Part shown: positions 1,603 to 63,207 of the stretch, piece after piece
How positions within the stretch are numbered: the first letter of the stretch is position 1
Layout: each line of letters opens with the position of its first letter
The notes under the pieces: model-generated
The model's input: only the letters and a program-made list of their open reading frames with translations
What the model was told of the DNA's origin: nothing
Database searches by the model: none
Source of the DNA: Escherichia phage AidaStucki_Bas93
Sequence record: PQ850593.1
Strand: one strand, 5' to 3'
DNA length: 64,000 nucleotides
Position numbers and translations under genes: made by a program

Positions 1603-3846
1603 ATGGCTAAGCAAAAATATAGTGAAGAGGTGTTGGACGAGTTACGTGTTGACCTTCAACGTCGTTTTAATTACGCTCAAGGTTACGTTGACATGGCTGT
1701 TAAGGGCTATGCTCGTGAAGCTTGGGAATATTTCTATGGTAACTTACCTGCACCAGTAACTGCTGGCAGCTCTAGTTGGGTAGATCGTACTGTTTGGGAG
1801 TCTGTTAACGGTACGCTGCAAGATATTATTAACGTATTCTGTTCTGGTGATGAAGCAGTTATTTTCGTAGCTGATAACCAACAGGATTCTGATGCTGCTG
1901 ACGTAGCAACTAAATTAGTTAATCAAATTCTTCTGCGTGATAATCCGGGATACAACATTATCTCTTCTGCTGCACAAGAATGTCTGGTTACTCGTAACTC
2001 TTTTATCAAATATTATTGGGATGAGCACACTTCTACCCAAACCGAAGAAGCTGAAGGTGTACCACCGGAGGCATTGGCTGCATATGTTCAGGGATTAGAA
2101 GCTGGTGGACTCAAGAATCTGGAAATCTTCACTGAAGAAAACGAAGATGGTACAGTAGATGTTAAAGTTACTTATGAACAAACTGTTAAACGTGTGAAAG
2201 TTGAATATGTTCCTTCAGAGCAAATCTTTGTTGACGAACATGCTACCTCTTTTGCAGATGCACAATATTTCTGTCATCGTGTACGTCGTTCTAAAGAAGA
2301 TCTGGTTGCTATGGGCTTCCCTAAAGACGAGATTGAAGCATTCAACGACTGGACAGATACGATGGATACCACTCAATCTACAGTTGCTTGGTCTCGTACT
2401 GACTGGCGTCAGGACATTGATGCTGACATTGGTACAGATACCGAAGATATCGCTTCTATGGTTTGGGTTTATGAGCACTACATCCGTACTGGTGTTCTAG
2501 ATAAGAATAAAGAGTCTAAACTCTATCAGGTTATTCAAGCTGGTGAGCATATCCTTCACACTGAAGAAGTAACTCATATTCCGTTTGTAACCTTCTGCCC
2601 ATATCCGATTCCGGGTTCCTTCTATGGTCAGTCAGTCTATGACATTACGAAAGATATTCAGGATTTACGTACCGCGTTAGTTCGTGGTTATATTGATAAC
2701 GTCAACAATGCTAACTATGGTCGATACAAAGCACTCGTTGGTGCATACGATCGTCGCTCTCTGCTTGATAATCGTCCCGGTGGAGTGGTTGAAATGGAAC
2801 GTCAGGACGCTATTGACCTGTTCCCATACCATAACCTACCTCAAGGTATTGACGGCCTATTAGGTATGTCTGAGGAGCTTAAAGAGACACGTACTGGTGT
2901 AACTAAACTTGGCATGGGTATCAACCCTGACGTGTTTAAGAATGATAACGCTTATGCAACTGTAGGCTTGATGATGAATGCTGCACAGAACCGTCTCCGT
3001 ATGGTATGTCGTAATATTGCTCACAACGGCATGGTTGAATTGATGCGTGGTATTTACAACCTTGTCAGAGAAAACGGTGAAGTTCCTATTGAGGTACAAA
3101 CCCCTCGTGGTATGGTTCAGGTAAATCCGAAACAATTACCAGCTCGTCACAATCTTCAAGTTGTGGTAGCTATTTCTCCTAATGAGAAAGCAGAACGTGC
3201 ACAGAAATTAATTAGCTTGAAACAGCTGATTGCAGCAGATGCACAGTTAGCACCTCTCTTTGGTTTGGAGCAAGACCGTTACATGACTGCACAGATCTTT
3301 GAGTTGATGGGTATTAAGGACACTCATAAGTACTTACTGCCTCTGGAACAGTATCAGCCTCCTGAGCCGTCTCCGATGGAAATCCTCCAGCTCGAGATGA
3401 CTAAAGCACAGGTTGAGAACGTACAGGCTTCCTCTCAGAAAATGATTGCTGATGCATTCGACCAACGTGAACGTACTACATTCGAACAGCAGAAAGCTGC
3501 GGATGAGTTAAGTCTGCGTCAGGAAGAGTTGCAGTTCAAGCAAGAAAATGCAGCAGATGCTATGACTCTGGAAAACCGTAAAGAAGATAACAATGCAACT
3601 CTGGAACAAGCAAAGCACAAGTTAGCTCTTATGCAACAGCAGGTCCGTCAGTATGAGTCTGTACTGAAAGAATTGCAGATGGTTATGGAGCATCAGGTAG
3701 ACCAAGAGAAGATTGTTCAGCAATTTCGTGTTCAGGATAAAACTTTGGAACTCCAAAAGAAAGAAGCTAATGTAACTAAGAAAGAGCAACAAGCCTCTCT
3801 CAAAGATTCACGGATTCCAGGCAAACGTCTTGGAAGTAAAAAGTAA
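1603..3846 (+). CDS. portal protein
   Basis: 747 aa. Lies immediately after terL, has portal-typical size, and ends in a long Q/E/K-rich helical tail. SD gagggagag lies upstream. Confidence 0.85.
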   Translation: MAKQKYSEEVLDELRVDLQRRFNYAQGYVDMAVKGYAREAWEYFYGNLPAPVTAGSSSWVDRTVWESVNGTLQDIINVFCSGDEAVIFVADNQQDSDAADVATKLVNQILLRDNPGYNIISSAAQECLVTRNSFIKYYWDEHTSTQTEEAEGVPPEALAAYVQGLEAGGLKNLEIFTEENEDGTVDVKVTYEQTVKRVKVEYVPSEQIFVDEHATSFADAQYFCHRVRRSKEDLVAMGFPKDEIEAFNDWTDTMDTTQSTVAWSRTDWRQDIDADIGTDTEDIASMVWVYEHYIRTGVLDKNKESKLYQVIQAGEHILHTEEVTHIPFVTFCPYPIPGSFYGQSVYDITKDIQDLRTALVRGYIDNVNNANYGRYKALVGAYDRRSLLDNRPGGVVEMERQDAIDLFPYHNLPQGIDGLLGMSEELKETRTGVTKLGMGINPDVFKNDNAYATVGLMMNAAQNRLRMVCRNIAHNGMVELMRGIYNLVRENGEVPIEVQTPRGMVQVNPKQLPARHNLQVVVAISPNEKAERAQKLISLKQLIAADAQLAPLFGLEQDRYMTAQIFELMGIKDTHKYLLPLEQYQPPEPSPMEILQLEMTKAQVENVQASSQKMIADAFDQRERTTFEQQKAADELSLRQEELQFKQENAADAMTLENRKEDNNATLEQAKHKLALMQQQVRQYESVLKELQMVMEHQVDQEKIVQQFRVQDKTLELQKKEANVTKKEQQASLKDSRIPGKRLGSKK

Positions 3847-23989: not shown

Positions 23990-26900
23990 ATGGCTAACAT
24001 TAAACCGTGGGAAGAAGCTTCCAAAGCTCCTGCGTATCTGAATGCCTCTCCGGAGCAACAGGCTCAAATGAGAGAACAATATAAGGCAGCAGGTGGCTTT
24101 ATTCCTGAGGAACAACCAGTAGCACAACCACAACAAGAAGAACGTGGTGTTATAGGTGAGTTTGCTCAAGGTGTGTCAAATGCTCTTCAATCTGGTGGTG
24201 CAAACATTGCAGCTAGTGCTGCTAAAGGTATTGGTGGTTTAGTTGAGATTGGTGAAGACCTAATTGGAGCACAAACTAGTTATGGTAAGCGTATCCAAGA
24301 GAACTCTCAGAACCTTCTGAAAGAACGTATGGATAAGATTGAGGATGGGATTGGTAAAACTGCTGGGCAATATGCTGGGGTTGTTGGTGATATTGGTTTG
24401 ACAGTTACTAATCCGTTAGCTGCCGCTGCTATCATCGCAGGTCGTGAGACAGGTCGTGCATATGCGGATCAAACCCCTGAAGAGGGAGAAGACAAGTCTG
24501 TTCTGGATGCAGCCTTAGTTGGTGGTGCTAACTATGCAGCTCAGAGAATTCTTCCGGGTGCTGTTGGTACAGCTGAATCTACACTTGGTCGTATCGGTCA
24601 GAACGTTGTTACTAACGCAGTGGCTGGTGCTAAAGGCGGTGCTCTTGTAGGTGCTGCTGAAGCTCAGAACAAATATGGTGATGACACAACCTTTGCTAAT
24701 GTCTTAGAAGGCGCTATTGAAGAAGGTGCTATTGGTGCTGCATTCGGTGGTGCAGTGGGTGGTGTTCACGGTTTGATCAGCCGTCCAGATTCTGCTGTCT
24801 TCAAGAATACTCCAGAATATGCAAAGACTGACATTGCTGCTGACGATGAGCTGATTCGTAGTGCTAAGACTGTTGATGAACTGAAAGAAGCCTACTCTAA
24901 AGCTGAAACTGCTAACGCCGCTTCCGCTCTTAATCTTCTGGATGAGAATGGATTCCGTATTACTGATGCTGTTGCTGTAGATTCTCCTGCTGCTCAGCGT
25001 ATTCTTAATACAGACCAAGCTCGTGCTGAGAAAGCTGCTTCTGTTCAGAAAGAACATTCTAATATTCCGGGCCTTAATCCTTTGGCTTCTCCTGCTAAGA
25101 CTCGTGGTAAAGCATTCGCTGATAATGAGCACAACCAGAAGCAAGCTGTTGCTATGAAAGATGCAATGGCTGACTACACCAAGGATAACACGAAAGCTCT
25201 TACAGATGTTCTAGATAACCTAGACCGTGAATTAACTGCTTACCGAGCTGCTGATGATTTTACTGGCAATCCACTTGATGTCAAGAATCGCACACAAGCT
25301 GACCGTGACTTCGTTGATGCTTATAAGACTTTCTATAATGAAGCAAATCGATTCAAAGCTCGTGATGGTGAAGACTTTAACAACTTTGTAGAGAAAGCTA
25401 CTGAGCTACGGAAGATGGCTGATAACGTTTCTCCAGAGATGAAGAAAGCTATTAGTGGGTTGAAGAAACTGAAAGGTATGCCTGAAGGTTTTAACCCTAT
25501 TCAAGATGCTTATACTCTGAACAATGCAGCTAAGTTCATGAGCAACCAAGACCGTGGTTGGACTTCCCTGACCGATGATGGATTCCGTGAGGCTTCTTCT
25601 CCTAGTCTGGTTATGAACACACTCGGTGCTGCTAAGTATGCTCTGAATCGCTTCTCTTCTCAGCGTGCTCGCTCTCAACGTGTTAAGCAACAAGAAGCTA
25701 ACAGCGAAGCTATCCGCTCTCTGGCTCGTGGTGATTTGGAAGTTGCTCGTGCTAAATCTACTGCTGATGAAGCTCGTGCTAAAATGGAAGAAGAACCAGT
25801 TGTTGATGACATTAAATTTAAGACGCAAAATGACGTGGAAACCGAACCGGTTCGGGAGCCTTCTTCTAGTACTGTGACGGAAGAAAATCTTCCTTCTTCC
25901 ACTCCTCAAGAAGCCCCTCTTACAGCTCGCGATTTAGTTGCTCAAAGACGTGCAGTTAAGCAGGCAGAACAGCGTCGTGCTCAAGAAGAGGCCGCACAGG
26001 CTCCAGAACCCACTGTAGAGGAACCAACAGTCAAAGCCGAGCCATTACCTGCCCGTGCTCCTAAAGCTCCTAAGGAGTCTATACAGGACGTTAAACCGGC
26101 AAGTGGTGTAGAACGTTTAGCTGCCATGTCTAGTGCTGCTCGTCAGGCTACTATAGATCGTGCAGAACGTTTTGCTCGTTCTCTGTACTCTCAGACTGCT
26201 AAGGCTAAGGCCACTGCTGAAAACTTCTTGGCTTACAAGGGAAGTTATAGGGAGTTGATGCGTCGGATTCGTCAGGAAGATAATGCTATCAACACTGAGC
26301 GTCATGAAGAGATGGCTCGTAATCAGCTAGCTTCTCAGCAAGGTATTGCTACTGCTAAGAACAACACTGTACGAACTAACTTTGCTGAATGGGTTAAGGA
26401 ACGTGGTCTGCCAGAAGACATTGCTACTAAGGCATTACGTGCTGAAGAGAAGGGTTTAGGTGGGAACGTGACTAACTTAGATAGTCTGAAACGTCGTGCT
26501 GAAAGGTTGTATCAGAAGCAGCGTGAGGATGAGTTTGATAGACTGTATCAACAGGCTCTGGAAGAGAATAAAGCTTTTGATAAGAAGAATGCTCCTAAAC
26601 TGGCTGACCAGAAGAAAGAGCTTCAATCTGAGATTGACACTTTGATTGATTCAGAACCTTTACGTCCTGCTCAGAAAGATGCTGTGCGTAAACTGATGAA
26701 TGACTTTGTAGATGAGAAGTTTAAATCTTCAGAGAAGGCTGGTAGGGAAGAAGCTTTGGAAGTAGGTCAGATGAAGGATATTTGGGATGGGTTTATTAAC
26801 ACCTATAACAGAGAAGTGAATGCCTTCAACAAAGCTAACAAGAACTCTCAGTATGAGGCTGCTGCTAAACACTTGCAGGCTCGTGAGGAGCGTCTTATCT

Positions 26901-28297
26901 CTTTACGTAACAGAGCAGAAGCTCGTGCTCAAGCGAAAGCTACAGCAGAAGCTGAACGTCAGTTACTCGAAGCTATTGCTGGTCAGAAGACTGAGATAGA
27001 GAAGATGTTTGATGAGTTACCTAAACCTGTCCGCGAGGCTCAGGAAAGCCGTACTCTGAAACAGCTTGCAGCTCACCATGATAAGAACTCCCCTGTTCCT
27101 CCAGAACGTTTCCGTAGTATTATCGAACGTATCCACAACGCCGAGTCAGATTACCTTGATCGTCAGCGTCGTTTAACTGATGCAGAAGAAGATGCTCGTC
27201 AGGCTAAGTGGAACAAAATGTATGAGCAAGCGGAAGAGATGGACCGTAAGTTTGAGATAGACAAAAGGGTTAAGCGCAGTGAAGAGCTTAAAGCGGCTCA
27301 GAAGCGTGAGAATGACCTTATGGCGGTACAACGTCAACGTGACGACATCCATCGTCGCCTGATGCATACTTTGGAGGATAGGGGCATATCTAAAGAGGAT
27401 GCTGAAGCATTTGCTGGTTCCTACATGGATAACCGTTATGCACTTCTTGATAAGCCTATGACTCCTACTGAACATCAGAATGCTCGTTCTCGTATTGAGG
27501 CTGATGTTGAGAAGTTTGCTAAGAAGTACGAATCAATGACTCCTATTGAGAAAGAGATTGTTAAGGTTACTGGAGATACTGAAGGTAAGCTTGATAACTT
27601 GGATGCGGATACTAGGAAGGCTATTGAGGAGGCTCAGAAGGTGGACTCTGATATTAAGAAACTGCAAGAGGAAGAGATGGAGATGGAGAAGATTCGTTCT
27701 GCTCTGCCTGATGATGAAAGATCTCAAGCAAATTCTGATATCTTGGAAAGCATTAAACAGCAGGAAGAAGCCTTTGCTGATAAAGCAGAGAAAGCTTTCT
27801 TGAATGGGAAGAGCTTGGATGAGTTGGCTAGTGTGGCTGAAGTTTTAGACAGGGTTCATGGTGCAGACAAGGCTGGTAACAACCGTCGCTTTGTACGTGC
27901 ATTGCAGACTGCTGCTGAAAACAAGAAGAAGTATGGTGATAATCCGGTAGCTTGGTTTAGTGCTGATGATTATTCTGCTATTGCTAAACTTGGTGCTTCT
28001 TCCGCAGGTGGTAACAAATCTAGAGCACTGGAGAAAATCTTTGGTTCTACAGCTGAACAAGCTAAGAGTAAGTTGCTTGGCAGGGATGATGTAGCGAAGA
28101 TGAGACGTGTAATTGAAGAGAACCCTGATATTAAGATTCCTTCTTACAAGACAACGAATCGTACTGAGTACTTGCAGTTCTTGGAGAAGTTTAATGACGA
28201 AGGGAAGCCGAAGATTAAACGTGGCTCATTGTCAGAGAAGCTTGAACGCAGTAAGCGTCAATCGAGACTCCGTGTAAGAGTTCGATCTAAGGAGTGA
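23990..28297 (+). CDS. giant internal virion protein (1435 aa)
   Basis: Start chosen at the ATG after aaggag. Gly/Ala-rich N-terminus, then about 1100 aa of highly charged helical sequence. Last gene of the late module. Confidence 0.55.
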   Translation: MANIKPWEEASKAPAYLNASPEQQAQMREQYKAAGGFIPEEQPVAQPQQEERGVIGEFAQGVSNALQSGGANIAASAAKGIGGLVEIGEDLIGAQTSYGKRIQENSQNLLKERMDKIEDGIGKTAGQYAGVVGDIGLTVTNPLAAAAIIAGRETGRAYADQTPEEGEDKSVLDAALVGGANYAAQRILPGAVGTAESTLGRIGQNVVTNAVAGAKGGALVGAAEAQNKYGDDTTFANVLEGAIEEGAIGAAFGGAVGGVHGLISRPDSAVFKNTPEYAKTDIAADDELIRSAKTVDELKEAYSKAETANAASALNLLDENGFRITDAVAVDSPAAQRILNTDQARAEKAASVQKEHSNIPGLNPLASPAKTRGKAFADNEHNQKQAVAMKDAMADYTKDNTKALTDVLDNLDRELTAYRAADDFTGNPLDVKNRTQADRDFVDAYKTFYNEANRFKARDGEDFNNFVEKATELRKMADNVSPEMKKAISGLKKLKGMPEGFNPIQDAYTLNNAAKFMSNQDRGWTSLTDDGFREASSPSLVMNTLGAAKYALNRFSSQRARSQRVKQQEANSEAIRSLARGDLEVARAKSTADEARAKMEEEPVVDDIKFKTQNDVETEPVREPSSSTVTEENLPSSTPQEAPLTARDLVAQRRAVKQAEQRRAQEEAAQAPEPTVEEPTVKAEPLPARAPKAPKESIQDVKPASGVERLAAMSSAARQATIDRAERFARSLYSQTAKAKATAENFLAYKGSYRELMRRIRQEDNAINTERHEEMARNQLASQQGIATAKNNTVRTNFAEWVKERGLPEDIATKALRAEEKGLGGNVTNLDSLKRRAERLYQKQREDEFDRLYQQALEENKAFDKKNAPKLADQKKELQSEIDTLIDSEPLRPAQKDAVRKLMNDFVDEKFKSSEKAGREEALEVGQMKDIWDGFINTYNREVNAFNKANKNSQYEAAAKHLQAREERLISLRNRAEARAQAKATAEAERQLLEAIAGQKTEIEKMFDELPKPVREAQESRTLKQLAAHHDKNSPVPPERFRSIIERIHNAESDYLDRQRRLTDAEEDARQAKWNKMYEQAEEMDRKFEIDKRVKRSEELKAAQKRENDLMAVQRQRDDIHRRLMHTLEDRGISKEDAEAFAGSYMDNRYALLDKPMTPTEHQNARSRIEADVEKFAKKYESMTPIEKEIVKVTGDTEGKLDNLDADTRKAIEEAQKVDSDIKKLQEEEMEMEKIRSALPDDERSQANSDILESIKQQEEAFADKAEKAFLNGKSLDELASVAEVLDRVHGADKAGNNRRFVRALQTAAENKKKYGDNPVAWFSADDYSAIAKLGASSAGGNKSRALEKIFGSTAEQAKSKLLGRDDVAKMRRVIEENPDIKIPSYKTTNRTEYLQFLEKFNDEGKPKIKRGSLSEKLERSKRQSRLRVRVRSKE

Positions 28298-28306
28298 TAA
28301 AAGAAA

Positions 28307-28337
28307 AGCCCTCAAGGAGAAAATCTCTTTGAGGGCT
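28307..28337. terminator. bidirectional terminator between the convergent modules
   Basis: About 14-bp hairpin (agccctcaaggaga-aaa-tctctttgagggct), flanked by an A-rich tract on the left and ttatttgttttt on the right. Confidence 0.75.
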
Positions 28338-28347
28338 TTATTTGTTT

Positions 28348-28602
28348 TTAGATTAAATCATAATACTGAATAATGTCAGAGAGTTTGAACTCTCGAATCT
28401 CATCTTTCTCTATATCTATCGCTGTCATAATCCAACAAGGTTTGCCACCGTTATGAAAACGGGAGCTAGCAACGGAGGTTCGGAGTGGAATAACGGACCG
28501 GTCAGCAACCTCGCCTCTCCAATTGCGATAGCGAAAGCGAAGCACTTGTTGCGTAGATTTTTGATCATCATTCATTTCCTTTCTTGAATTGTTTTCTTGC
28601 AT
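28348..28602 (-). CDS. small protein with WYL-like pattern
   Basis: 84 aa. The pattern RFRYRNWRGEVADRSVIPL...CWIMTAIDIEKDEIREFKLSDI resembles WYL/SH3-barrel domains. The start is uncertain (28602 or 28575). Confidence 0.35.
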   Translation of the reverse strand: MQENNSRKEMNDDQKSTQQVLRFRYRNWRGEVADRSVIPLRTSVASSRFHNGGKPCWIMTAIDIEKDEIREFKLSDIIQYYDLI

Positions 28603-28969
28603 CGTTTTCCATCTTTGTTTTTAGTTTATGACAAGGGTCTTTACACAGAACCTGAAAACCTTCTTTCTCACACAGAGCACGAGAGATGATTTCATCCCAA
28701 GTTGCTTCATGGTCAAGAGGTACTATAGGCTCTATGTGGTCAATAGCCATATCCTTTACAGGGTGGTCAGAACCACACATGGCACACCTAAAGTGCATTG
28801 CCAGTCTACCTGTCTTTGGATTAATCTTCTGCTCTGTCTTGGCTTCTGCTAGTGCATCGAACATGGGCTTCCACTTTCTAGTCAGAGAACGAATCCCTGA
28901 CTTAATGAAAGAGTTGTAACGAGCTTCAGTCCAAGTTCCACTACAGCGTGTCTTCTCAGACTTCGCCAT
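28568..28969 (-). CDS. HNH endonuclease
   Basis: 133 aa. Carries CAMCGS...AIDHIEPIV...CKDCHKLKT (Cys pairs plus the His-Asn-His core). Confidence 0.75.
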   Translation of the reverse strand: MAKSEKTRCSGTWTEARYNSFIKSGIRSLTRKWKPMFDALAEAKTEQKINPKTGRLAMHFRCAMCGSDHPVKDMAIDHIEPIVPLDHEATWDEIISRALCEKEGFQVLCKDPCHKLKTKMENDARKQFKKGNE

Positions 28970-29135
28970 AATCAGCTTCTTCCCAAACTCGTTTGTTTAC
29001 ACGATGACTCACTTTGCCCTCACGAGGAATACGACCTGTCCTCTGATCAAACAGTTGATGTTTAATCTTTTGATCTTTACGAGATTCACGATTGGAGGAG
29101 TTTTCATCATATGAACGATAATCAAATTTACCCAT
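28956..29135 (-). CDS. small hypothetical protein (59 aa)
   Basis: ATG after aagga. Begins MGKFDYRSYDENSSNRESRKDQK. Overlaps the HNH start by 14 nt. Confidence 0.4.
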   Translation of the reverse strand: MGKFDYRSYDENSSNRESRKDQKIKHQLFDQRTGRIPREGKVSHRVNKRVWEEADYGEV

Positions 29136-29148
29136 TATAATATCCTTA

Positions 29149-29967
29149 TTACCAAGATTTATCTAACCATGTCCAGTCGAACAGGTCTTCCGGAGCCTGA
29201 CCAACAAAGAGAAGCCGAGCATTCTCAAGCATTTTCTCTTCATCTTCAGTATCGAACTTCTTATAATATTCCATTCGTACTATATGATACATGGTCCACT
29301 TATCTGTAACCCCAGCCAACAACTTAGCTGCTGCTTTCTTCCCTATCCCTTGACGTCGAAGCTGGAGCTTACCGCCCCACATCACTTCTTTACGTTCACC
29401 ACATCCGGGAATATTATCTGTTCCATCTCCAATCAGCATCTGATAGAAGAAATTTTGCCATGAAACTAAATCAGATACGTAGTGAGGAGGAACCTCTTTT
29501 TGTCTTTCTCCACAAGCCCAACGGTAATGCCATCCGGGAGTTATTAACAAATCTTTGTCTCTAGTACAGATGATAGTGTTCTTATCTCTACGTTGCCTTT
29601 CAGCTAGTGCATCATCAGCCTCTCTCCCAAATACATCTATGTATTCATACTTACCTTTAATATAATCACCGACATTTTGCCAGTGAAAAGGTCTTTCTCC
29701 GGGAGGTCTGTTTGCTTTGTAGTCTTGCTGCTTAGCAACATCGAAACGGAAGTTACCGCCTTCGCTGAAGTAGAACACAACCTTACTGCAACCTGAGCGA
29801 GCAATGATAGTATCTATCTTGTACTGAAGTCGTTCAATCATGAAATTATAATCAACTGGAACACGTCCTGTGTCAAGAAAGGGATGCTCCTGAGTAAGGG
29901 CACCCACTTCATATCGAAGAACATCTCCGTCCACAATCGCTACTTCTGGATAAGATATATCACTCAT
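29149..29967 (-). CDS. 5'-3' exonuclease / flap endonuclease (FEN, RNase H-like)
   Basis: 272 aa from the ATG after ggagg. PIN-like N-terminus (VAIVDGDVLRY) and H3TH motif (GIGKKAAAKLL). Confidence 0.8.
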   Translation of the reverse strand: MSDISYPEVAIVDGDVLRYEVGALTQEHPFLDTGRVPVDYNFMIERLQYKIDTIIARSGCSKVVFYFSEGGNFRFDVAKQQDYKANRPPGERPFHWQNVGDYIKGKYEYIDVFGREADDALAERQRRDKNTIICTRDKDLLITPGWHYRWACGERQKEVPPHYVSDLVSWQNFFYQMLIGDGTDNIPGCGERKEVMWGGKLQLRRQGIGKKAAAKLLAGVTDKWTMYHIVRMEYYKKFDTEDEEKMLENARLLFVGQAPEDLFDWTWLDKSW

Positions 29968-30403
29968 GATTTCCTCCATGGTGTCGGATAAGGTGACAAT
30001 TAGCACAGAGCATGACACATTTATCTAACTCTGCCTTAAGTTTAGGCCAGTACCGATAGTATGAAGGGTTTTCGTCTTTTGTTTGTTCATCCAGATGATG
30101 GAACTGCATAACACAAGGTGGGTATTCTTTTTTACAATCTAAGCAAACACCTCCCATGTATTCTATTGCTTTTATCTTAAGATCTCTATTTGCCTTATTA
30201 GCAACCTCTTGCCGTCTTTTTCTATTGGCAGCATACCAAGCTCTTTTCTTTTCTGCGGTACAAATCCTACAAGTTCCAGTAACACCCTTAGTACACATCT
30301 TATTGGGGTGATATTCTGTTATGGCTTTTTCAACCCCACAAACGTTACACACCTTAGTATCAGCATCCACTATAGCTACTTCAGGGAGCTTAACGTCTTC
30401 CAT
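29960..30403 (-). CDS. HNH endonuclease whose first 15 aa copy the FEN N-terminus
   Basis: 147 aa. Multiple CxxC pairs and CANCHLIRHH. The N-terminus MEDVKLPEVAIVDAD parallels the FEN MSDISYPEVAIVDGD. Confidence 0.75.
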   Translation of the reverse strand: MEDVKLPEVAIVDADTKVCNVCGVEKAITEYHPNKMCTKGVTGTCRICTAEKKRAWYAANRKRRQEVANKANRDLKIKAIEYMGGVCLDCKKEYPPCVMQFHHLDEQTKDENPSYYRYWPKLKAELDKCVMLCANCHLIRHHGGNHE

Positions 30404-30404
30404 A

Positions 30405-30928
30405 TTATTCTCCTAATAACTTACGAATTTCAATACGGAAATTATCATACTCTTCAGGGTATTCAAACCCACATTCAAGAAGAGCATAGTGAACAACCTT
30501 CAGCAAATCCTGAACCTTATTCTTATCTTTGTGTCGATAAGCATATTTGATCATGTTGGTTTGTTGAAAGTTCAACTGAGGGTTTGCATGATAAAACTCG
30601 ATAGGTTGAATCTTCTTGCTATCAGGGTTATAGTGGGAACCTCCCACCATAGAAACTAATGCTGGGTTACCTTGAGATGCCATTTCTAACTTCTCCGTGT
30701 GGTCATGTGAGTAGTCTACTGGAGAGGTTTTGTTACCAGTAATTTTAGGTAAAATCGCTCTAACTGTTTCTATGTACTTACCGCCATCAACATTAATTTG
30801 AAACTCCACAAGTTCATCCTGTAGTTCATACCCTGATAAGCTTGATAGTTCCTCTAGCTCGTCTCTGAGGAAGTTTGTGTGCTTTCTTTGGGTTGCAAGC
30901 GCTTTCTTTAAAAGAACTATTTCTTCAC

Positions 30929-30932
<4 letters not shown>
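30405..30932 (-). CDS. DUF3310-like protein
   Basis: 175 aa. The C-terminal half (GGSHY...IQPIEF...NMIKYAYRHKDKNKVQDLLKVVHYALL) fits the DUF3310 pattern as I recall it. Confidence 0.55.
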
Positions 30933-32222
<1,290 letters not shown>

Positions 32223-56820: not shown

Positions 56821-57183
56821 CTATTGGTTTTTAATCAACTCAATAGACTTACGGATATAAAGAATATCTCGGAAGTTTCTGTAGTTGTTCATAAATTGAT
56901 GCTTCTGGAACTCAGCTTCTTCCAGAGCTTTCTTTGCGTCTGCATAGCCCTTACGAGCAAGATATACAACACGCTCTGGTAACATGTTTGCACGATGGAT
57001 TAGATACTTGTGAGCTTTCATGTTGCTTTGCTCACGAGCAATCTTACCTTTAGCAACTTTGATACCATTTGCAATCCAAGCAAGTTCTTGCTCAAGCTCA
57101 TCGTTGGACATTCCACCGAGGTTTGATGCAACCTTGTTCAGAGTTTCAATATTAACGTTGCCCTTGATGGGACGTGTATTCAT
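56821..57183 (-). CDS. hypothetical helical protein
   Basis: 120 aa. Confidence 0.45.
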   Translation of the reverse strand: MNTRPIKGNVNIETLNKVASNLGGMSNDELEQELAWIANGIKVAKGKIAREQSNMKAHKYLIHRANMLPERVVYLARKGYADAKKALEEAEFQKHQFMNNYRNFRDILYIRKSIELIKNQ

Positions 57184-57185
57184 AC

Positions 57186-57338
57186 TTACTCCTGTTGTTT
57201 ACACTCGTCAATAACCCACTGATAAGTGGATTGCCCAGAAAAGAAACACTGAATAAATCCAGACGTTCTCTGCGTTACCAGTGCTAGTGCACAAATCACT
57301 ACCGCTGCTGCTAGCAGTTTTAAATCTAATTTAGACAT
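57186..57338 (-). CDS. small membrane protein (50 aa)
   Basis: From the ATG after agagagga. Begins MSKLDLKLLAAAVVICALALV, a single TM or signal segment. Confidence 0.45.
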   Translation of the reverse strand: MSKLDLKLLAAAVVICALALVTQRTSGFIQCFFSGQSTYQWVIDECKQQE

Positions 57339-57357
57339 ATTTCCTCTCTTTGAATTT

Positions 57358-57382
57358 AAAAAAGGACTCTCCGAAAAGAGCC
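57358..57382 (-). terminator. Rho-independent terminator
   Basis: On the - strand: ggctct-tttcgg-agag(t)cc followed by ttttttaaa. Confidence 0.6.
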
Positions 57383-57446
57383 AAGCTTTAAATCCAAAAA
57401 AGATATTACCCAATATCTGTGGATAACCTGCTCTTAAAATATCTAT

Positions 57447-57486
57447 CCGACGGATGTTTGAGGAACACTCCTCGCCCTAGCATCGG
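57447..57486 (-). ncRNA. conserved structured RNA core, copy 1 (stem-CUAGGG-hairpin-AACAUC-stem)
   Basis: - strand: CCGATG|CTAGGG|cGAGGAgtgtTCCTCa|AACATC|CGTCGG. Homologous to 60722-60755, with compensatory changes in both stems. Confidence 0.35.
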
Positions 57487-57568
57487 CCCCATACGGGAAA
57501 TAAATTAAGATTAGGTTAGTTGAGTCAGAATAACTCACATAGCCTTCTCCGGAAGAAGGCTATAGATG

Positions 57569-57802
57569 TTACTCGCCTTTCTTAGCACGATCTTTGGCAG
57601 TTTTGCCAGTGCGGATGCGGTGTGAAACGTTAACCAGAGTGCCGCCATCAACTACGGTAACGCTCTTGTTTTTAGCCAGATCAAACACAGCCTTCTCTGT
57701 GCCACCCAAGCGAATTTGCTTAGGCTCACTGAAGGTTTGGGTTGATTTGGATTGGAACTGGAACGGTTGACGGATTGCATCAATTGCACTTACTTTAGAC
57801 AT
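57569..57802 (-). CDS. hypothetical early protein
   Basis: 77 aa. SD aagga. Confidence 0.5.
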   Translation of the reverse strand: MSKVSAIDAIRQPFQFQSKSTQTFSEPKQIRLGGTEKAVFDLAKNKSVTVVDGGTLVNVSHRIRTGKTAKDRAKKGE

Positions 57803-57908
57803 AGGGGAAATTCCTTAAAAAGTCATGGCTGCGTAGAGGGAATTCCCTACGCAAATTGGGCCGCCTAAAAAGAGGCGTCATAGTACTAAAAGGAGGAGAG
57901 AAGAGGGC

Positions 57909-58025
57909 TTATTTAGCTACCTTTTTCTGACCATTTACGAACCAGATAATTGTGCCATCAGGCTGCCGTTGACCGAAGCCTTTAATAGTTAGCATGTCTT
58001 CCGAAAACTCTTTAAAAGTAATCAT
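57909..58025 (-). CDS. small hypothetical protein (38 aa)
   Basis: Begins MITFKEFSEDMLTIKGFGQRQPDGTIIWFVNGQKKVAK. SD aagga 8 nt upstream. Confidence 0.3.
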   Translation of the reverse strand: MITFKEFSEDMLTIKGFGQRQPDGTIIWFVNGQKKVAK

Positions 58026-58102
58026 TTACTTATCCTTACATTAGAGTTAATATGATCTCTGCTTTGGCAAACTTCTCACCAACTTCGAGAGTATCAGCAA
58101 TC

Positions 58103-58348
58103 CTACTCCTGAACCACAGACATACGAATCATTTCCACCGGAGTGTCACCCTTCATAACACCCAGCACACCAGACATAAGGTTAACTGTGGTAATCCAGT
58201 CTTTTTCTACAGAGATTTTGCTGGACACATTGGCAACACGCATATAATACTGAGGTGATGCTGAACCTCGCTGGACTACGAAAGGATTTCCGGGGATGAT
58301 AGTATCCAGCGGATGTGTGTTATCTTTAATCTTAGGGATAATTTTCAT
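58103..58348 (-). CDS. hypothetical early protein
   Basis: 81 aa. Confidence 0.45.
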   Translation of the reverse strand: MKIIPKIKDNTHPLDTIIPGNPFVVQRGSASPQYYMRVANVSSKISVEKDWITTVNLMSGVLGVMKGDTPVEMIRMSVVQE

Positions 58349-58356
58349 CTTGATTC

Positions 58357-58668
58357 CTATTTAAGTTTGAGGCTGATATTAAGGTGCATACACGCCCTGT
58401 TCTGTACAGCGGCATAACTTCTGCCGAGCATGTCTGCCATTCTCTGAATAGGCATGAACCCAGCATTACGAATAACAAACTGATCTTCTTCTTCCGTCCA
58501 CTTGACACGAAGAGTAGCTCTGGAAATTTTGAACTTGGTACAGGCTGTGTTAACAGCATTCTCTGTAACATTCATAATCTGAGCAACCTCTTGAACCGAG
58601 TACTCTTTGATCAGTCTCCGAAGATTTTCAATCTGCATCGGAGTCCATATAGTTCTTCGTGCTTTCAT
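58357..58668 (-). CDS. DNA-binding protein with two Myb/SANT-like HTH repeats
   Basis: 103 aa. Two repeats: WTPMQIENLRRLIKEYSVQEVAQIMNVTENAV and WTEEEDQFVIRNAGFMPIQRMADMLGRSYAAVQNRA. Confidence 0.55.
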   Translation of the reverse strand: MKARRTIWTPMQIENLRRLIKEYSVQEVAQIMNVTENAVNTACTKFKISRATLRVKWTEEEDQFVIRNAGFMPIQRMADMLGRSYAAVQNRACMHLNISLKLK

Positions 58669-58688
58669 ATACCCTCCAATTAAACATT

Positions 58689-58718
58689 TATATAAGACTT
58701 GCTTAGATAAAGATTCAA
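58689..58718 (-). promoter_or_regulatory. candidate host sigma-70 early promoter
   Basis: On the - strand: TTGAAT-N18-TATATA, about 20 nt upstream of the ggaggg SD of the Myb-like gene. Confidence 0.35.
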
Positions 58719-58963
58719 TAAAATAGGGGGAGGGGACGAATCCTCCCTTATCCTATTAATTAGTATTGCATGTAAGATCTAACAATCGGTTTCCTTTGTA
58801 GGAATAAGCGTTATGCTCATCCAGCACTAAACTCCCGCCCCCTTAGTGGGCTGGGTTATTAAAGGGTAACGCCCTTATGGGCTAGTTACGTGAATGTTAG
58901 TTTGATAGGAGATCTGAAGTCCTATCTCAAAGGACTCTCGTAAGAATCCTTCACGATAAGCTC

Positions 58964-59161
58964 TTAATATACTAATCCGTGTAAGAGAAACACTCTCTTA
59001 GTTAACTCTGCTTTAGCTCTGTAATAAGCCGTAGAACCTAACAGGCGGCTCTTAACAAAGAACTTGATGTCATTGCTTACGTCTTGTATTAAACGCTCCT
59101 GTACAGCTTCTGAGGAGCTATTAATTGAATCAATTAACACCTTTGTAGATGTGTAATTCAC
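58964..59161 (-). CDS. hypothetical protein
   Basis: 65 aa from the GTG after ggag. The longer track ORF overlaps the lipoprotein gene. Confidence 0.4.
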   Translation of the reverse strand: MNYTSTKVLIDSINSSSEAVQERLIQDVSNDIKFFVKSRLLGSTAYYRAKAELTKRVFLLHGLVY

Positions 59162-59162
59162 A

Positions 59163-59444
59163 TCACCACTCCTTACCGGTTGTAGTTGTAGAGCCACCAC
59201 ACCACTGTGCATTAGATAAGGTTTTAGTCTCCTCATCCATTGCTGCACCATTCATGCATGAGATACCATTGTAACGCATATCAATTTCGCCAGAAGGAAC
59301 CTTCTCACCTTTATGCCAGCGAGATACACAAATACCTTCCACTGCTACTGCACACCATCCATCAGGACGGCTCTGTACACAGCCTGTAAGGGCCACACAG
59401 ACAAGGAAGATACAGATTAAGGATATTACACCACCCCAACTCAT
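59163..59444 (-). CDS. small lipoprotein
   Basis: 93 aa from the ATG after ggaggtg. Signal peptide plus lipobox (MSWGGVISLICIFLVCVALTGC). The mature part is Cys-rich. Confidence 0.6.
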   Translation of the reverse strand: MSWGGVISLICIFLVCVALTGCVQSRPDGWCAVAVEGICVSRWHKGEKVPSGEIDMRYNGISCMNGAAMDEETKTLSNAQWCGGSTTTTGKEW

Positions 59445-59455
59445 AACACACCTCC

Positions 59456-59559
59456 AAGAGCTTCTAGCGAGGATGACAGGGTTCGAACCTGCATACTCCA
59501 ATTACTTCTTTAACGACCGCTTAGAAGGCGGGGAAGATACATCCTCGCTAGAAGCTCTT
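59456..59559. repeat. 20-bp perfect inverted repeat flanking the tRNA-like element
   Basis: aagagcttctagcgaggatg (59456-59475) is the exact reverse complement of 59540-59559. Confidence 0.95.
59468..59546 (-). tRNA. tRNA-like element, possibly a non-canonical tRNA-Arg(UCU)
   Basis: 7-bp acceptor stem (GAGGATG/CATCCTC). Canonical T arm (GCAGG-TTCGAAC-CCTGT). A hairpin CCGC-CUUCUAA-GCGG with U33 and anticodon UCU. I could not draw a D arm, 23 nt lie between the anticodon arm and the T arm, and no CCA is encoded. Confidence 0.45.
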
Positions 59560-60064
59560 ATTTATTATTGAAACCCTTGCTCCAGTAATACTTACCATTG
59601 CAAGACCTACTACAAAAATGATTTTGGTTTTCTTTGTGGACCTTGTTACTCCTTCTCTCAAAAGATGTGCCACAATTACTGCAAACCAAAGTTATGACCA
59701 CACCCTTAGGTCTGTTCTCTAAGGTCTTCTTTAAGTGATCATTTGTGCTTAGAATCTGAAGGTTAGATATCTCATCATTGGTTGGATTTTGATCAACATG
59801 ATCTACCTCTTCCTCTGTAGTGAGATATCTTCCTATGTGGCAGGACATTAAGTACCTAGCATAAGAAACAGTAGACCTGTCTTTATCAGAGTTGTAAAGA
59901 TCTACAACCCTTCTCCCCTCTCGATTTTGACGAAGATATCCCCACCTCCAGTCATTGCAGTAGGGATAATCTAATTGTATTTTCAAATTACCTCCTGCTC
60001 TATCCATTGAGCTAAGAGCGCTTAATTTATTTAGATCATATCTCGCTTGGTGATAGGACCACAC
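59558..60064 (-). CDS. HNH homing-type endonuclease
   Basis: 168 aa. Carries EVDHVDQNPTNDEISNLQILSTNDHLKK (HNH_3-like) and a C-terminal Zn ribbon (CSNC...CSRSC). The start is uncertain (GTG 60064 lacks an SD). Confidence 0.65.
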   Translation of the reverse strand: MWSYHQARYDLNKLSALSSMDRAGGNLKIQLDYPYCNDWRWGYLRQNREGRRVVDLYNSDKDRSTVSYARYLMSCHIGRYLTTEEEVDHVDQNPTNDEISNLQILSTNDHLKKTLENRPKGVVITLVCSNCGTSFERRSNKVHKENQNHFCSRSCNGKYYWSKGFNNK

Positions 60065-60084
60065 ACTTTACATTCATACCAACC

Positions 60085-60336
60085 TTAAGCACATGCAGGG
60101 AGTGTGATGATTTCAGGTTTACCTTCGAACTCTTCAAACAAACCCAAGAATGTAGGGCTATACGTACCAGTACAAACAAACTCATCAAAGAGTTCATTGT
60201 ATGAGGGCTTAATCTTCCAAGCCCACACATAGCCCATCTTATCAATTGCAATGTAACGAGTGTTTAGAGGAACAGTCATCATCACACCATCAACTTCGAC
60301 CACTTTAGTGATTGGTGCAGCTTGGAAGTTTTTCAT
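60085..60336 (-). CDS. hypothetical early protein
   Basis: 83 aa. Confidence 0.45.
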   Translation of the reverse strand: MKNFQAAPITKVVEVDGVMMTVPLNTRYIAIDKMGYVWAWKIKPSYNELFDEFVCTGTYSPTFLGLFEEFEGKPEIITLPACA

Positions 60337-60349
60337 ACTTTACCCTTAA

Positions 60350-60382
60350 TTAAAACAACAAAGGCCACCCGATTGGGCAGCC
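60350..60382 (-). terminator. Rho-independent terminator
   Basis: On the - strand: ggctgccc-aatc-gggtggcc followed by tttgttgtttt. Confidence 0.65.
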
Positions 60383-60393
60383 TTTTTTATTTG

Positions 60394-60534
60394 TTAACTG
60401 TTATAGATCCAATTACCTTGCTTGTTACGGATAGTGGACATTGCATGAACCCAGAAGCCTTCCAGTTTCAGAGCACCATTAGTTACTGCATCCATACGTT
60501 CAGGGCGGTTCATACGTTTGGTTGATACTTTCAT
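60394..60534 (-). CDS. small basic protein (46 aa)
   Basis: Begins MKVSTKRMNRPERMDAVTNGALKLEGFWVHAMSTIRNKQGNWIYNS. Followed directly by a terminator. Confidence 0.35.
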   Translation of the reverse strand: MKVSTKRMNRPERMDAVTNGALKLEGFWVHAMSTIRNKQGNWIYNS

Positions 60535-60721
60535 ACCTATCTCTCTCTTTGTTAGTGGAGGCATTATTGCCAGTTGATATAGCAGATAACCCTATTAAAA
60601 GGACTACCGACTATCTAAACTGGTGAAGACTCCCTACCCCTAGAGAGTCTCCTGAATCCCAAACCAATATGTACCCCTACATATCGGAAAGTCTACCGAA
60701 AATTAACAGGTTTTAGTCTAA

Positions 60722-60755
60722 CACCGGATGTTCGAGCAAGCTCTCCCTAGCGGTG
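60722..60755 (-). ncRNA. conserved structured RNA core, copy 2
   Basis: - strand: CACCG|CTAGGG|aGAGcttgCTCg|AACATC|CGGTG. Same architecture as 57447-57486. Confidence 0.35.
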
Positions 60756-60835
60756 TGGCATATGCCTGATTTAATAAGTTAATGAGGAACACCCTCACAT
60801 AGCCCTCTGATAAGCACAAGGGCTATAAGTCGGTG

Positions 60836-61132
60836 TTACTTGTCGGCTTCAATCTCTTGATGCTTAGCTATAGCTACTCTCAAGTCCTCATTAGCACGAG
60901 TAAGGCGTAATACTTCATGGTTGAGATTCTGAAGACGCTTGTTTCTATCTTCAACTTGCGTAATAAGATCATTAAGAGTTTCTTTAACTTTCTCACTATA
61001 CATCTCATCCACTCGGACTAGAGATTTGTACATTCTCTCCCAGCTTGCTGCTTTGTTCCTAAGGATAATAAATCCTATAACGCTGATAGTTAAACAGCTT
61101 ACAAAAAGGAATTTATATATCTCTAAAGTCAT
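60836..61132 (-). CDS. membrane-anchored coiled-coil protein
   Basis: 98 aa. N-terminal TM (FLFVSCLTISVIGFIIL) followed by a heptad-rich helix. Confidence 0.5.
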   Translation of the reverse strand: MTLEIYKFLFVSCLTISVIGFIILRNKAASWERMYKSLVRVDEMYSEKVKETLNDLITQVEDRNKRLQNLNHEVLRLTRANEDLRVAIAKHQEIEADK

Positions 61133-61331
61133 ATTATTTACCCTTTATCAGAGATTAAAAGTAATATTATTTAAGTAAGTTATATTTAGTAAACTTATTT
61201 TCTAAGAAATTTTCAAAGGGTCTATATACAGAGCATTACCCATAGTCCCAGAACACTACCATCTTTTTCAATAAATTTACTAAGTGGTTGGTTTATAAAG
61301 GAATTTAGTTTGTCAAATCTGGCACTAGAGA

Positions 61332-61721
61332 TTATTCCCTAGAGCTATTATCGAACACTAAATCACCACAATACATAGGATTGGCATACCATTTTGGCAC
61401 CCCTTCGCTCTTACTCTGAAAGTAAGTCCCACTATACAGCGGAACATAATTCTTCTTAAGGGCACGTTTAGCAAGTCGCTCGCTTTCTCCAATGGCTTGC
61501 TTAGTCATCGGATTTTTATCACGAATCAGCTTTACATAACGTTTATAAGGTTTCTCCTGTTTTAATAGTACCGGAATCCACTCAAACTGGTTCTTTTGTC
61601 TTATCACCTGTTCAGCGGTCAGTTTTCGTTGGGCCATTCTATTTATCACGGTATCCGCAACTAAAGCCTTACATGCGGTTGGCTGATTCCCTGCCTCATA
61701 ATAAATAGTCAATGTCAACAT
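61332..61721 (-). CDS. SleB-like cell wall hydrolase (Hydrolase_2 family)
   Basis: 129 aa. IYYEAGNQP...LVADTVINRM...QKNQFEW fits the family pattern. The ATG has no nearby SD; an AGGAGGT lies 25 nt upstream, so the start is uncertain. Confidence 0.55.
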   Translation of the reverse strand: MLTLTIYYEAGNQPTACKALVADTVINRMAQRKLTAEQVIRQKNQFEWIPVLLKQEKPYKRYVKLIRDKNPMTKQAIGESERLAKRALKKNYVPLYSGTYFQSKSEGVPKWYANPMYCGDLVFDNSSRE

Positions 61722-61770: not shown

Positions 61771-61796
61771 AAAAAAGCCCCAGCCGTAGCCGGGGC
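61771..61796 (-). terminator. Rho-independent terminator
   Basis: On the - strand: gccccggc-tacg-gctggggc followed by tttttt. Confidence 0.75.
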
Positions 61797-61857: not shown

Positions 61858-61881
61858 GCAAAAAGCCGCTCAAAGGCGGCT
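61858..61881 (-). terminator. Rho-independent terminator (upstream member of a tandem pair)
   Basis: On the - strand: agccgc-ctttga-gcggct followed by ttttg. Confidence 0.55.
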
Positions 61882-61961
61882 ATGTGGAAGCTTCAAATGG
61901 GGAGAGGGCACGACGCGGCAGAAAGAGCGTCATAGTACTAAAAGAGGGGGCTGCATTCCTA

Positions 61962-63171: not shown

Positions 63172-63207
63172 AAAAGAAAAGGCGCTACCCGTTAAAGATA
63201 GCGCCTT
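63172..63207 (-). terminator. Rho-independent terminator
   Basis: On the - strand: aaggcgcta-(11-nt loop)-tagcgcctt followed by ttcttttatc. Confidence 0.7.

Follow-up and report, generated by a model that had tools for sequence, protein, structure and literature searches.

A duplicated structured RNA element in the early region of phiEco32-like coliphages

Phages of the phiEco32 type serve as a model for the takeover of host transcription, with a phage sigma factor (gp36) and a sigma70 inhibitor (gp79), and also find therapeutic use; their early operons of 15-20 kb are treated as strings of small open reading frames (ORFs). The early-region RNase III sites of phage T7 contain about two helical turns of duplex, and the PeSLs of phage T4, which combine an early promoter with a simple stem-loop, form the boundaries of shuffled early genes. 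In phage HK022, two paralogous structured RNAs of ~70 nucleotides (nt), putL and putR, lie in the early operons and act on RNA polymerase (PMC9378689), and canT of Tn916 is a cis-acting RNA antiterminator in a mobile element (PMC11658703). The put RNAs suppress termination in cis at the beta' zinc-binding domain of the polymerase and need no protein factors. Here we describe an RNA element that is present twice in a 64,000-nt stretch of Escherichia phage AidaStucki_Bas93 (PQ850593.1; referred to as the window), at 57339-57568 (copy 1) and 60535-60835 (copy 2). Both copies lie on the minus strand, as do all early genes of the 57000-61200 region, and all features of the window described below are on that strand.

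Over 57000-61200, identity is 99.9% to Escherichia phage JacquesWildberger_Bas92 and 90-97% to ~100 phiEco32-like phages (Kuravirus and sister genera), and on this sequence evidence the window is that of a Kuravirus (phiEco32-like) coliphage. An earlier note had proposed that the two regions are homologous and hold a conserved structured RNA of the early region, and every sequence detail that it reported was found in place. The ATAGCC...GGCTAT hairpins at 57539-57563 and 60799-60826 are the sole two matches to this pattern in 64 kb, where 0.02 would be expected; each starts a few bases past a stop codon and is followed by GTGAG and then by a TGAGN/NCTCA hairpin. The CUAGGG and AACAUC hexamers are indeed identical, as CTAGGG-N(6-30)-AACATC occurs only at 57453-57480 and 60727-60750 (0.21 expected; 2 of 100 shuffles reach two matches), and the changes noted between the outer stems of the copies (T-G to C-G, A-T to C-G and G-C to A-T) are correct. 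The terminator said to close copy 1 at 57358-57382 was picked up by our terminator scan as well. Clear homology extends over the first ~130-145 nt of the two regions (57421-57565 and 60700-60828) but not over their full 230 and 300 nt, and the GGTTATC...ATAT...AATA segment that was thought to end both copies is particular to this phage; copy 2 of other Kuraviruses has GGGCTATCC or GGGCTTCCC.

The resemblance between the copies goes beyond short chance matches. A covariance model (R1), built solely from 12 copy-1 orthologs, matches copy 2 of the window (60700-60828) over its full length with 49.9 bits (E = 6e-9), and it does so without exception at the loci of Kuravirus, Suseptimavirus and Nieuwekanaalvirus (40-56 bits, E values from 1e-6 to 3e-10). 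R1 found no further copy anywhere in the 64-kb window, and a second model restricted to the core of the element (R2) found no third or degenerate copy there. A plain MAFFT alignment of both full regions was poor, with the cores out of register, and was left unused. A homolog search in related phages, as the earlier note had suggested, located the element in ~100 Kuravirus-like records and in Salmonella phage 7-11.

The module consists, in this order, of hairpins H1 and H2, a small hairpin H3 with an RUAU loop, and a core in which a stem (H4), a 7x7 internal loop and a hairpin (H5) follow one another. RNAalifold, applied to 12 distinct copy-1 orthologs, returned H1-H5, the terminator and a long-range helix, P3 (UAACCU/AGGUUA and CUUAA/UUAAG), within which H3 and H4-H5 lie; ten pairs show compensatory changes. 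In the copy-1 seed alignment 99.2% of the cells are paired, with nine two-sided pair changes against 0-2 in slid controls, and none of 500 shuffles matches it. The joint alignment of both copies, which was fitted to R1 and hence leans towards that model, is 98.3% paired and holds 18 two-sided changes (1-9 in slid controls). For the R2 core set (43 instances, 28 of them distinct) the paired fraction is 98.1%; four of the six H4 pairs are double-changed, with one position found as A-U, C-G and G-C and the outermost as C-G, U-A, A-U and G-U, and position 4 of H5 is G-C, C-G or A-U among the cores. Compensatory changes affect every helix and are seen across the two paralogs and three phage lineages. 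The helices tolerate any pairing sequence, and the loop strands CUAGGG-N and N'-AACAUC are fixed. Because the helices co-vary while this large internal loop stays fixed, we are highly confident that the element is a functional structured RNA, in agreement with what had been proposed.

The two nucleotides that flank H5 deserve separate mention. N/N' is A/G in 15, C/A in 11 and A/A in 2 of the 28 distinct cores, and C/G never occurs; Kuravirus copy 1, the 7-11 group and copy 2 each contain both states. Judged from these alignments, the switch amounts to covariation of a pair that is not Watson-Crick. Non-canonical pairs (with one G-C, two G.A, and A.G or C.A as N.N') probably run through the fixed loop, which would act as a docking surface. 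Read antiparallel (C.C, U.U, A.A, G-C, G.A, G.A, N.N'), it could form a continuous non-canonical helix, a type of structure recognised by proteins or tertiary contacts.

The element is widely distributed, with 103 phage records for copy 1 and 98 for copy 2. Copy 1 is found at 69% nucleotide identity in Salmonella phages 7-11 and SE131, members of a different family (Grimontviridae); 7-11 and phiEco32 have only ~27-32% of their ORFs in common (PMC8948821). The outer stem of 7-11 reads UUCGGUG/CGCCGAA (CCGAUG/CGUCGG in the window), its inner hairpin GAGC-aacu-GCUC (GAGGA-gugu-UCCUC) and its H3 GCC/GGC (CCC/GGG), with both loop strands unaltered. No second copy was found in 7-11 within 61.7-79.9 kb, nor in the right-hand 11 kb when filters were switched off. 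When metagenome and genome collections were scanned for exact patterns, further variants of the Kuravirus and 7-11 types came up, together with one distant case, locus L165 (contig JBOFGJ010000684.1, 3027-3250), a phage-like contig that carries the element core and represents a third lineage. H1, H2 and H4 (AUAGCG/CGCUAU) of L165 are unrelated in sequence, and H3 (CCC-auau-GGG), H5 (GAGC...GCUC) and both loop strands are retained; its tail contains a hairpin with a CAGGGGUG loop. The invariance of the loop in L165, L148 and L162 is given by construction, since the search pattern contained the loop, which is not so for the loci derived from BLAST. The contig is filed under a 'Flavobacterium sp.' metagenome-assembled genome, an assignment that is probably a binning artefact; it also carries many small ORFs, a gene for an Srd-like sigma70 decoy and predicted TTGACT-16-TATATT promoters in tandem. 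A phage related to that of L165, linked to it through a shared 446-amino-acid protein (L173), has no element. Among the other patterns tried, a loose one of 15 bases gave at least 120 chance matches in IMG/VR and was useless, and those of 18 and 21 bases returned known phages and chance matches in coding sequences (L127/L135, L167-L170) that R1 and R2 rejected.

The genes upstream of the element differ between phages. The next gene is gp90 with an amidoligase cluster after copy 1 (in 7-11 the endolysin gene comes first), gp112 after copy 2, and an unrelated ORF of 54 amino acids in L165.

The fold can be assigned to one strand. U-G pairs are present in H1, H2 and H4 in most or all sequences, and the fold belongs to the sense (minus) transcript because these pairs would be C.A on the opposite strand. 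Folding z-scores alone fail to separate the strands (sense -4.4, antisense -5.2); both whole regions fold far more stably than shuffles (z = -4.4 and -3.7). Recognition of duplex DNA could explain neither the compensatory substitutions nor the strand-specific G-U pairs, and we therefore consider it highly unlikely that the element acts chiefly at the DNA level, be it as a DnaA site (a roadblock or one related to replication), as the operator of a phage regulator or as a recombination linker that shuffles early cassettes. Such functions would account for a perfect DnaA-box consensus, TTATCCACA, at 57418-57426, which fits the 9-mer consensus TTATNCACA, overlaps the 3' strand of P3 and occurs exactly once in each copy-1 ortholog, the 7-11 group included; both strands of the overlapping P3a never vary. 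They would also account for the fact that the differing upstream genes all end inside a conserved AGTRAC boundary. The box is single, however, with no cluster around it and no accompanying change in GC skew, and it is absent from copy 2 and L165. At most, a DNA-level function would be layered on copy 1 as a second one, and the box may represent such an additional constraint. An origin of replication was rejected as an identity of the locus, there being neither a cluster of DnaA boxes nor a GC-skew switch.

In copy 1, H1 (57538-57564) starts 6 nt past the TAA stop codon (57569-57571) of the upstream gene. The base of this hairpin (UAUAGCC/GGCUAUG) is invariant and its top variable, with upper pairs found as U-A/A-U and as U-G/C-G/U-A. 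H2 (57521-57537; UGAGUUA uuc UGACUCA) has a fifth pair that is U-A, C-G or G-C depending on phage and copy. The 5' strand of P3 (57505-57518; UAACCU..CUUAA) pairs with its 3' strand at 57424-57437 (UUAAG..AGGUUA; RNAalifold and covariation), P3b showing A-U/U-A swaps in 7-11 and P3a being invariant. H3 (57488-57497) reads CCC guau GGG, with the conserved RUAU loop and C-G/G-C swaps at two positions. The core (57447-57486), with the letters CCGATG-CTAGGG-c-GAGGAgtgtTCCTC-a-AACATC-CGTCGG, is composed of the H4 outer stem (57481-57486 with 57447-57452), the loop strands CUAGGG-c (57474-57480) and a-AACAUC (57453-57459), and H5 (57460-57473). A further hairpin, AGAUAUU-GGGU-AAUAUCU (57401-57418), is absent in 7-11.

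H1 was considered as an intrinsic terminator and dismissed, as GUGAG rather than a U tract follows it and the terminator scan omits it; the true terminators are T6 and T4, described below. The arrangement of the hairpins bears on a processing or stability cassette, in which RNase E or a phage enzyme would cut the early RNA in the A/U-rich stretch 3' of the core and the hairpins would shield the upstream mRNA from 3' exonucleases, a role played by RNase III sites in the early region of T7. The element always comes right after a stop codon with hairpins of 9-11 base pairs (bp) that lack a U tract, even in L165, whose H1 sequence is unrelated; (U/A/G)AGA and an A/U-rich stretch follow H4 in all lineages, and the position is intercistronic in every context. 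An internal loop of 14 invariant nucleotides with an isosteric covarying pair, however, is needed by neither a protective hairpin nor an RNase E site, RNase III would require longer helices than these (5-7 bp for H4, 3-5 bp for H5), and the A/U stretch of copy 1 is paired within P3. We regard a role of this kind as unlikely.

Copy 2 has the same modules. H1 (60799-60826) follows a TAA stop codon at 60836-60838, and H2 (60783-60797) reads UGAGG guguu CCUCA. An alternative helix can form between the H2 loop GGUGUU and the 5' flank AACACC (60829-60834); the corresponding positions in phage ECBP2 are AACAUC/GAUGUU, a C-G to U-A swap that supports this pairing. H3 (60757-60766) is GGC auau GCC. The core (60721-60756; (A)CACCG-CTAGGG-a-GAGcttgCTC-g-AACATC-CGGTG(T)) contains H4 (60751-60756 with 60721-60726), the loop strands CUAGGG-a (60744-60750) and g-AACAUC (60727-60733), and H5 (GAG cuug CUC, 60734-60743). 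The tail of copy 2 then carries two hairpins with covarying stems and fixed UA-GGGG-UA tips, followed by a variable insert and the ribosome-binding site of gp112. The first of these hairpins (60664-60687) has an invariant GUA-GGGG-UAC tip and pairs that change between U-A, C-G and U-G, and the second (60625-60652), of 12 bp, has an invariant CUA-GGGG-UAG tip and four pairs with two-sided changes. An extra UAGGG motif lies near 60590-60596, so that, together with the core loop and the tail tips, three to four UAGGG motifs are displayed in ~300 nt.

Exposed motifs of the UAGGG type recur in the core loop, in the two UA-GGGG-UA tips of copy 2, in the GGGU loop of copy 1 and in the CAGGGGUG loop of L165. 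They would suit a trans-acting non-coding RNA or a protein sponge, an explanation that we hold to be somewhat doubtful. The element and its terminator would then constitute an RNA gene within the 3' untranslated region of abundant immediate-early mRNAs, and the released RNA of ~200 nt (longer for copy 2) would use the fixed loop and the UAGGG/GGGG motifs to bind or titrate a protein of host or phage origin. The stable folding of both whole regions agrees with this, as does the retention of element and terminator as one unit from Kuravirus to 7-11 while the downstream genes differ. There is, however, no conserved promoter or defined 5' end, the upstream genes vary, and copy 2 and L165 lack a terminator of their own. 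GGA, which CsrA needs, is missing from the C variants of the loop, and we know of no bacterial protein that recognises UAGGG.

The element does not encode a protein. A short ORF in the H4/loop region, starting with ATG or GTG directly before CTAGGG, changes frame between phages, since a 2-nt difference in length between the window and 7-11 shifts it after H5; in copy 2 it meets a TAG after four codons. Hypothetical coding sequences have been annotated inside copy 2 of Bas92 (L001, 6683-6784) and inside copy 1 of phage Paul (L139, 8033-8128), and as the RNA is structured and the frame unconserved, both are probably spurious.

A scan of the window against Rfam 15 (4227 models) at gathering thresholds returned only a weak tRNA, and at E values up to 10 nothing in 57000-61400 overlapped either copy, in line with the earlier note, which could name no matching family. 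None of the self-cleaving ribozymes, 6S RNAs, tRNA-like structures or known phage motifs of Rfam gave a match over the copies. Text searches of the literature, which did not cover the promoter-mapping papers on phiEco32, returned no description of the element, and the accessible genome papers of these phages mention the terminator only. By these comparisons the element is a candidate new RNA family, and by position and architecture it is among the cis-acting structured RNAs of phage early operons. Mimicry of ribosomal RNA was rejected, as the E. coli rrnH operon contains no CTAGGG and no paired CUAGGG/AACAUC site, and so was a promoter inside the element, because the CTGACT-18-TATATT in question exists in phiEco32 only and is unconserved.

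Copy 1 is located between homologs of phiEco32 genes 91 and 90 and copy 2 between those of genes 113/116 and 112, as judged from synteny. In SU10 and phiEco32 the genes at both positions are early ones, transcribed by the host polymerase with sigma70, and early genes 69-120 are ascribed to far-upstream promoters (PMC4281155). The first gene after copy 2 is a small basic ORF (60394-60534; 46 amino acids from the ATG at 60534), a homolog of phi32_112 (gp112); its homolog in 7-11, gp135, has no element beside it. Our terminator scan of the sense strand returned six terminators, T1 (63179-63207), T2 (61864-61881), T3 (61777-61796), T4 (60360-60385), T5 (58728-58747) and T6 (57358-57391, with its stem at 57365-57382 and its U tract at 57358-57363), and the series T2-T6 is also present in phiEco32. 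T4 is the first terminator downstream of copy 2 and is conserved in phiEco32, the order being copy 2, gp112 (with gp111) and T4 in the window and phiEco32 alike. T6, which RNAalifold found as well, lies 60 nt after copy 1, and its sequence is conserved together with the element in Kuravirus, Suseptimavirus and 7-11. The next start codon (57338) is only 19 nt beyond the T6 U tract, and the gp90-gp80 cluster that begins there is tightly packed, so transcription of these genes must pass through T6. Only two sigma70 promoters of 7-11 were confirmed by primer extension, and these lie upstream of gene 151; middle promoters were not found, and the late promoters are elsewhere (PMC8948821). The 7-11 element and its terminator, at the boundary of genes 112 and 111, hence lie inside one very long early unit.

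Our best guess for the function, offered tentatively on the strength of this arrangement, is that of a nut/put-like site: present in the early RNA while it is being made, the element would allow the host polymerase to pass downstream intrinsic terminators. The module would act in cis on the transcribing host polymerase, like lambda nut and HK022 put: during sigma70-driven early transcription the nascent element would bind the elongation complex, by itself or together with a factor from phage or host, and the bound complex would become resistant to the intrinsic terminators beyond it, T6 for copy 1 and, after the small gene past copy 2, T4. The genes beyond T6 and T4 would then be expressed as delayed-early genes, by read-through because there is no room for promoters of their own. 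With the same reserve, we suggest that the element may stand for a new class of elongation-control RNA in virulent coliphages, an antiterminator of unrelated fold whose CUAGGG/AACAUC loop would dock on RNA polymerase or another factor and gate the passage from immediate-early genes for host takeover to delayed-early ones with metabolic and regulatory roles. The same loop may also be read as that of a new riboswitch class or a new small ribozyme.

Several observations weigh against antitermination. R1 scored at best 8 bits (E = 0.49) in HK022 24000-32000 (the immunity region, filters off), so that no similarity to put was seen, and no Rfam family was matched. No element precedes T1-T3, which are located upstream of copy 2, or belongs to the T4-T5 unit; no terminator was found near the L165 homolog, and 7-11 has a single copy. 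A constitutive antiterminator made of RNA only, placed right before a conserved terminator, would render that terminator pointless, and for this reason the proposal needs a trans-acting factor, yet no protein is common to all element-bearing loci. The promoter positions in this phage are predicted ones. The adjacent proteins were tried as a common binding partner and set aside: L165 lacks homologs of gp112, gp90 and gp91, for which PHROGs gives no function.

The position of copy 1 directly upstream of T6 is also what would be expected of a riboswitch, or of an attenuator controlled by a ligand or protein, in which the P3/H3/H4-H5 junction would be the aptamer and T6 the expression platform for the amidoligase/glutamine-amidotransferase cluster. 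A junction with covarying helices and fixed loop nucleotides precedes the conserved terminator, and the same metabolic cluster is downstream in Kuravirus and 7-11. Moreover, AAGAGC of the Kuravirus P3 3' strand can form 6 bp with GCUCUU in the 5' half of the terminator. This pairing shrinks to 4-5 bp in 7-11 and SU7, however, and RNAalifold on truncated alignments gave only weak, lineage-specific alternatives that compete with T6. The junction is separated from the terminator by ~60 nt that include a dispensable hairpin, copy 2 and L165 precede unrelated small genes with no terminator, the downstream genes are of no consistent class, and the element is intercistronic, not a 5' leader. Taken together, we find a riboswitch or attenuator quite unlikely.

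Other features of the early region were noted alongside. Upstream of the gp116 homolog, an AT-rich spacer of 199 nt (61133-61331) contains a TTGACA and two TTGAAA hexamers, possible additional early promoters ~300-500 nt upstream of copy 2. The 295-nt non-coding stretch upstream of a D5-like transcriptional regulator gene (58669-58963) includes several GC-rich hairpins, T5 and, after T5, a promoter-like TTGAAT-17-TTATAT site, and is a possible site of a further structured RNA. A perfect direct repeat of 18 nt, CTTTTAGTACTATGACGC, is found at 57875-57892 and 61927-61944, in two other early intergenic regions; a hairpin follows each repeat, both are kept at corresponding places in other Kuraviruses, and the repeat may be a promoter or another RNA signal. 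A sequence resembling the 5' half of a tRNA (GCGCTCTTAGCTCAATGGATAGAGC, ~60010-60036) is followed by an ORF similar to HNH endonucleases (59558-60064) and then by an atypical tRNA-Arg(UCU)-like gene (59468-59546; 29.7 bits with Rfam, none found by ARAGORN). Related phages have an ordinary tRNA-Arg at the corresponding place, and the HNH gene seems to have disrupted or displaced it. In 7-11, an unannotated stretch of 712 nt downstream of gp135 (82133-82845; 3134-3846 of locus L140) contains the T-arm-like sequences GGTTCGAATCC and GGTTCGACTCC and may harbour unannotated tRNA or tRNA-like genes.

If the antitermination proposal is true, it would explain how downstream genes without promoters of their own are expressed at the boundary between immediate-early and delayed-early genes, and it would add a third structural solution, beside nut and put, for RNA-mediated antitermination in E. 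coli. A conserved RNA with such covariation and a fixed 14-nt loop represents an unrecognised regulatory layer, and the element also serves as a warning that small ORFs annotated within it, as in Bas92 and Paul, are probably spurious.

Among the known systems, the PeSLs of T4 resemble the element in being repeated hairpin boundaries between small variable early genes, with different genes abutting the same boundary, but here there is no conserved promoter and the structure is far more elaborate. The T7 RNase III sites (R0.3-R1.3) are likewise repeated homologous hairpins with an internal loop between sigma70 early genes. A coaxial duplex of ~20 bp, however, is not available in the present element, where H4 has 5-7, H5 3-5 and H1 9-11 bp, and the internal loop is 7x7 with invariant nucleotides. 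With the orphan riboswitch candidates and phage motifs of Rfam it shares a conserved junction, covarying stems, fixed loop nucleotides and a non-coding position upstream of a terminator, but none of the 4227 models matches and the class of the downstream gene is inconsistent. Lambda nut is similar in being an early-operon RNA site just before a terminator (nutR-tR1 compared with copy 1-T6) and in having a small basic protein gene after one copy (N after nutL, gp112 after copy 2). A linker in copy 2, CUCAUUAAC, partly resembles the boxA of lambda nut and rrn (CGCUCUUA-like), whose consensus we take to be GCUCUUUAAC; it is partly buried in H2 and weaker in copy 1. Unlike the nut and rrn sites, the element has no boxB-type hairpin with a GNRA-like pentaloop, and PHROGs yielded no homolog of N and no detectable family function for gp112. 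Tn916 canT and the Bacillus EAR, to which we liken the element by description and not by sequence, are cis-acting, orientation-specific RNAs before terminators in the long operon of a mobile element (PMC11658703), in unrelated hosts. HK022 put differs in sequence and structure, being a V of two stem-loops with a triplex where the present RNA, known from its sequence alone, has a junction and a 7x7 loop, and here both copies point in the same direction, kilobases from promoters and after coding genes. Like put, nevertheless, the element is a compact multi-helix RNA with non-canonical pairs or bulges and compensatory differences between the copies (PMC9378689), present as two paralogous copies per genome in sigma70 early operons upstream of terminators, here T6 and T4.

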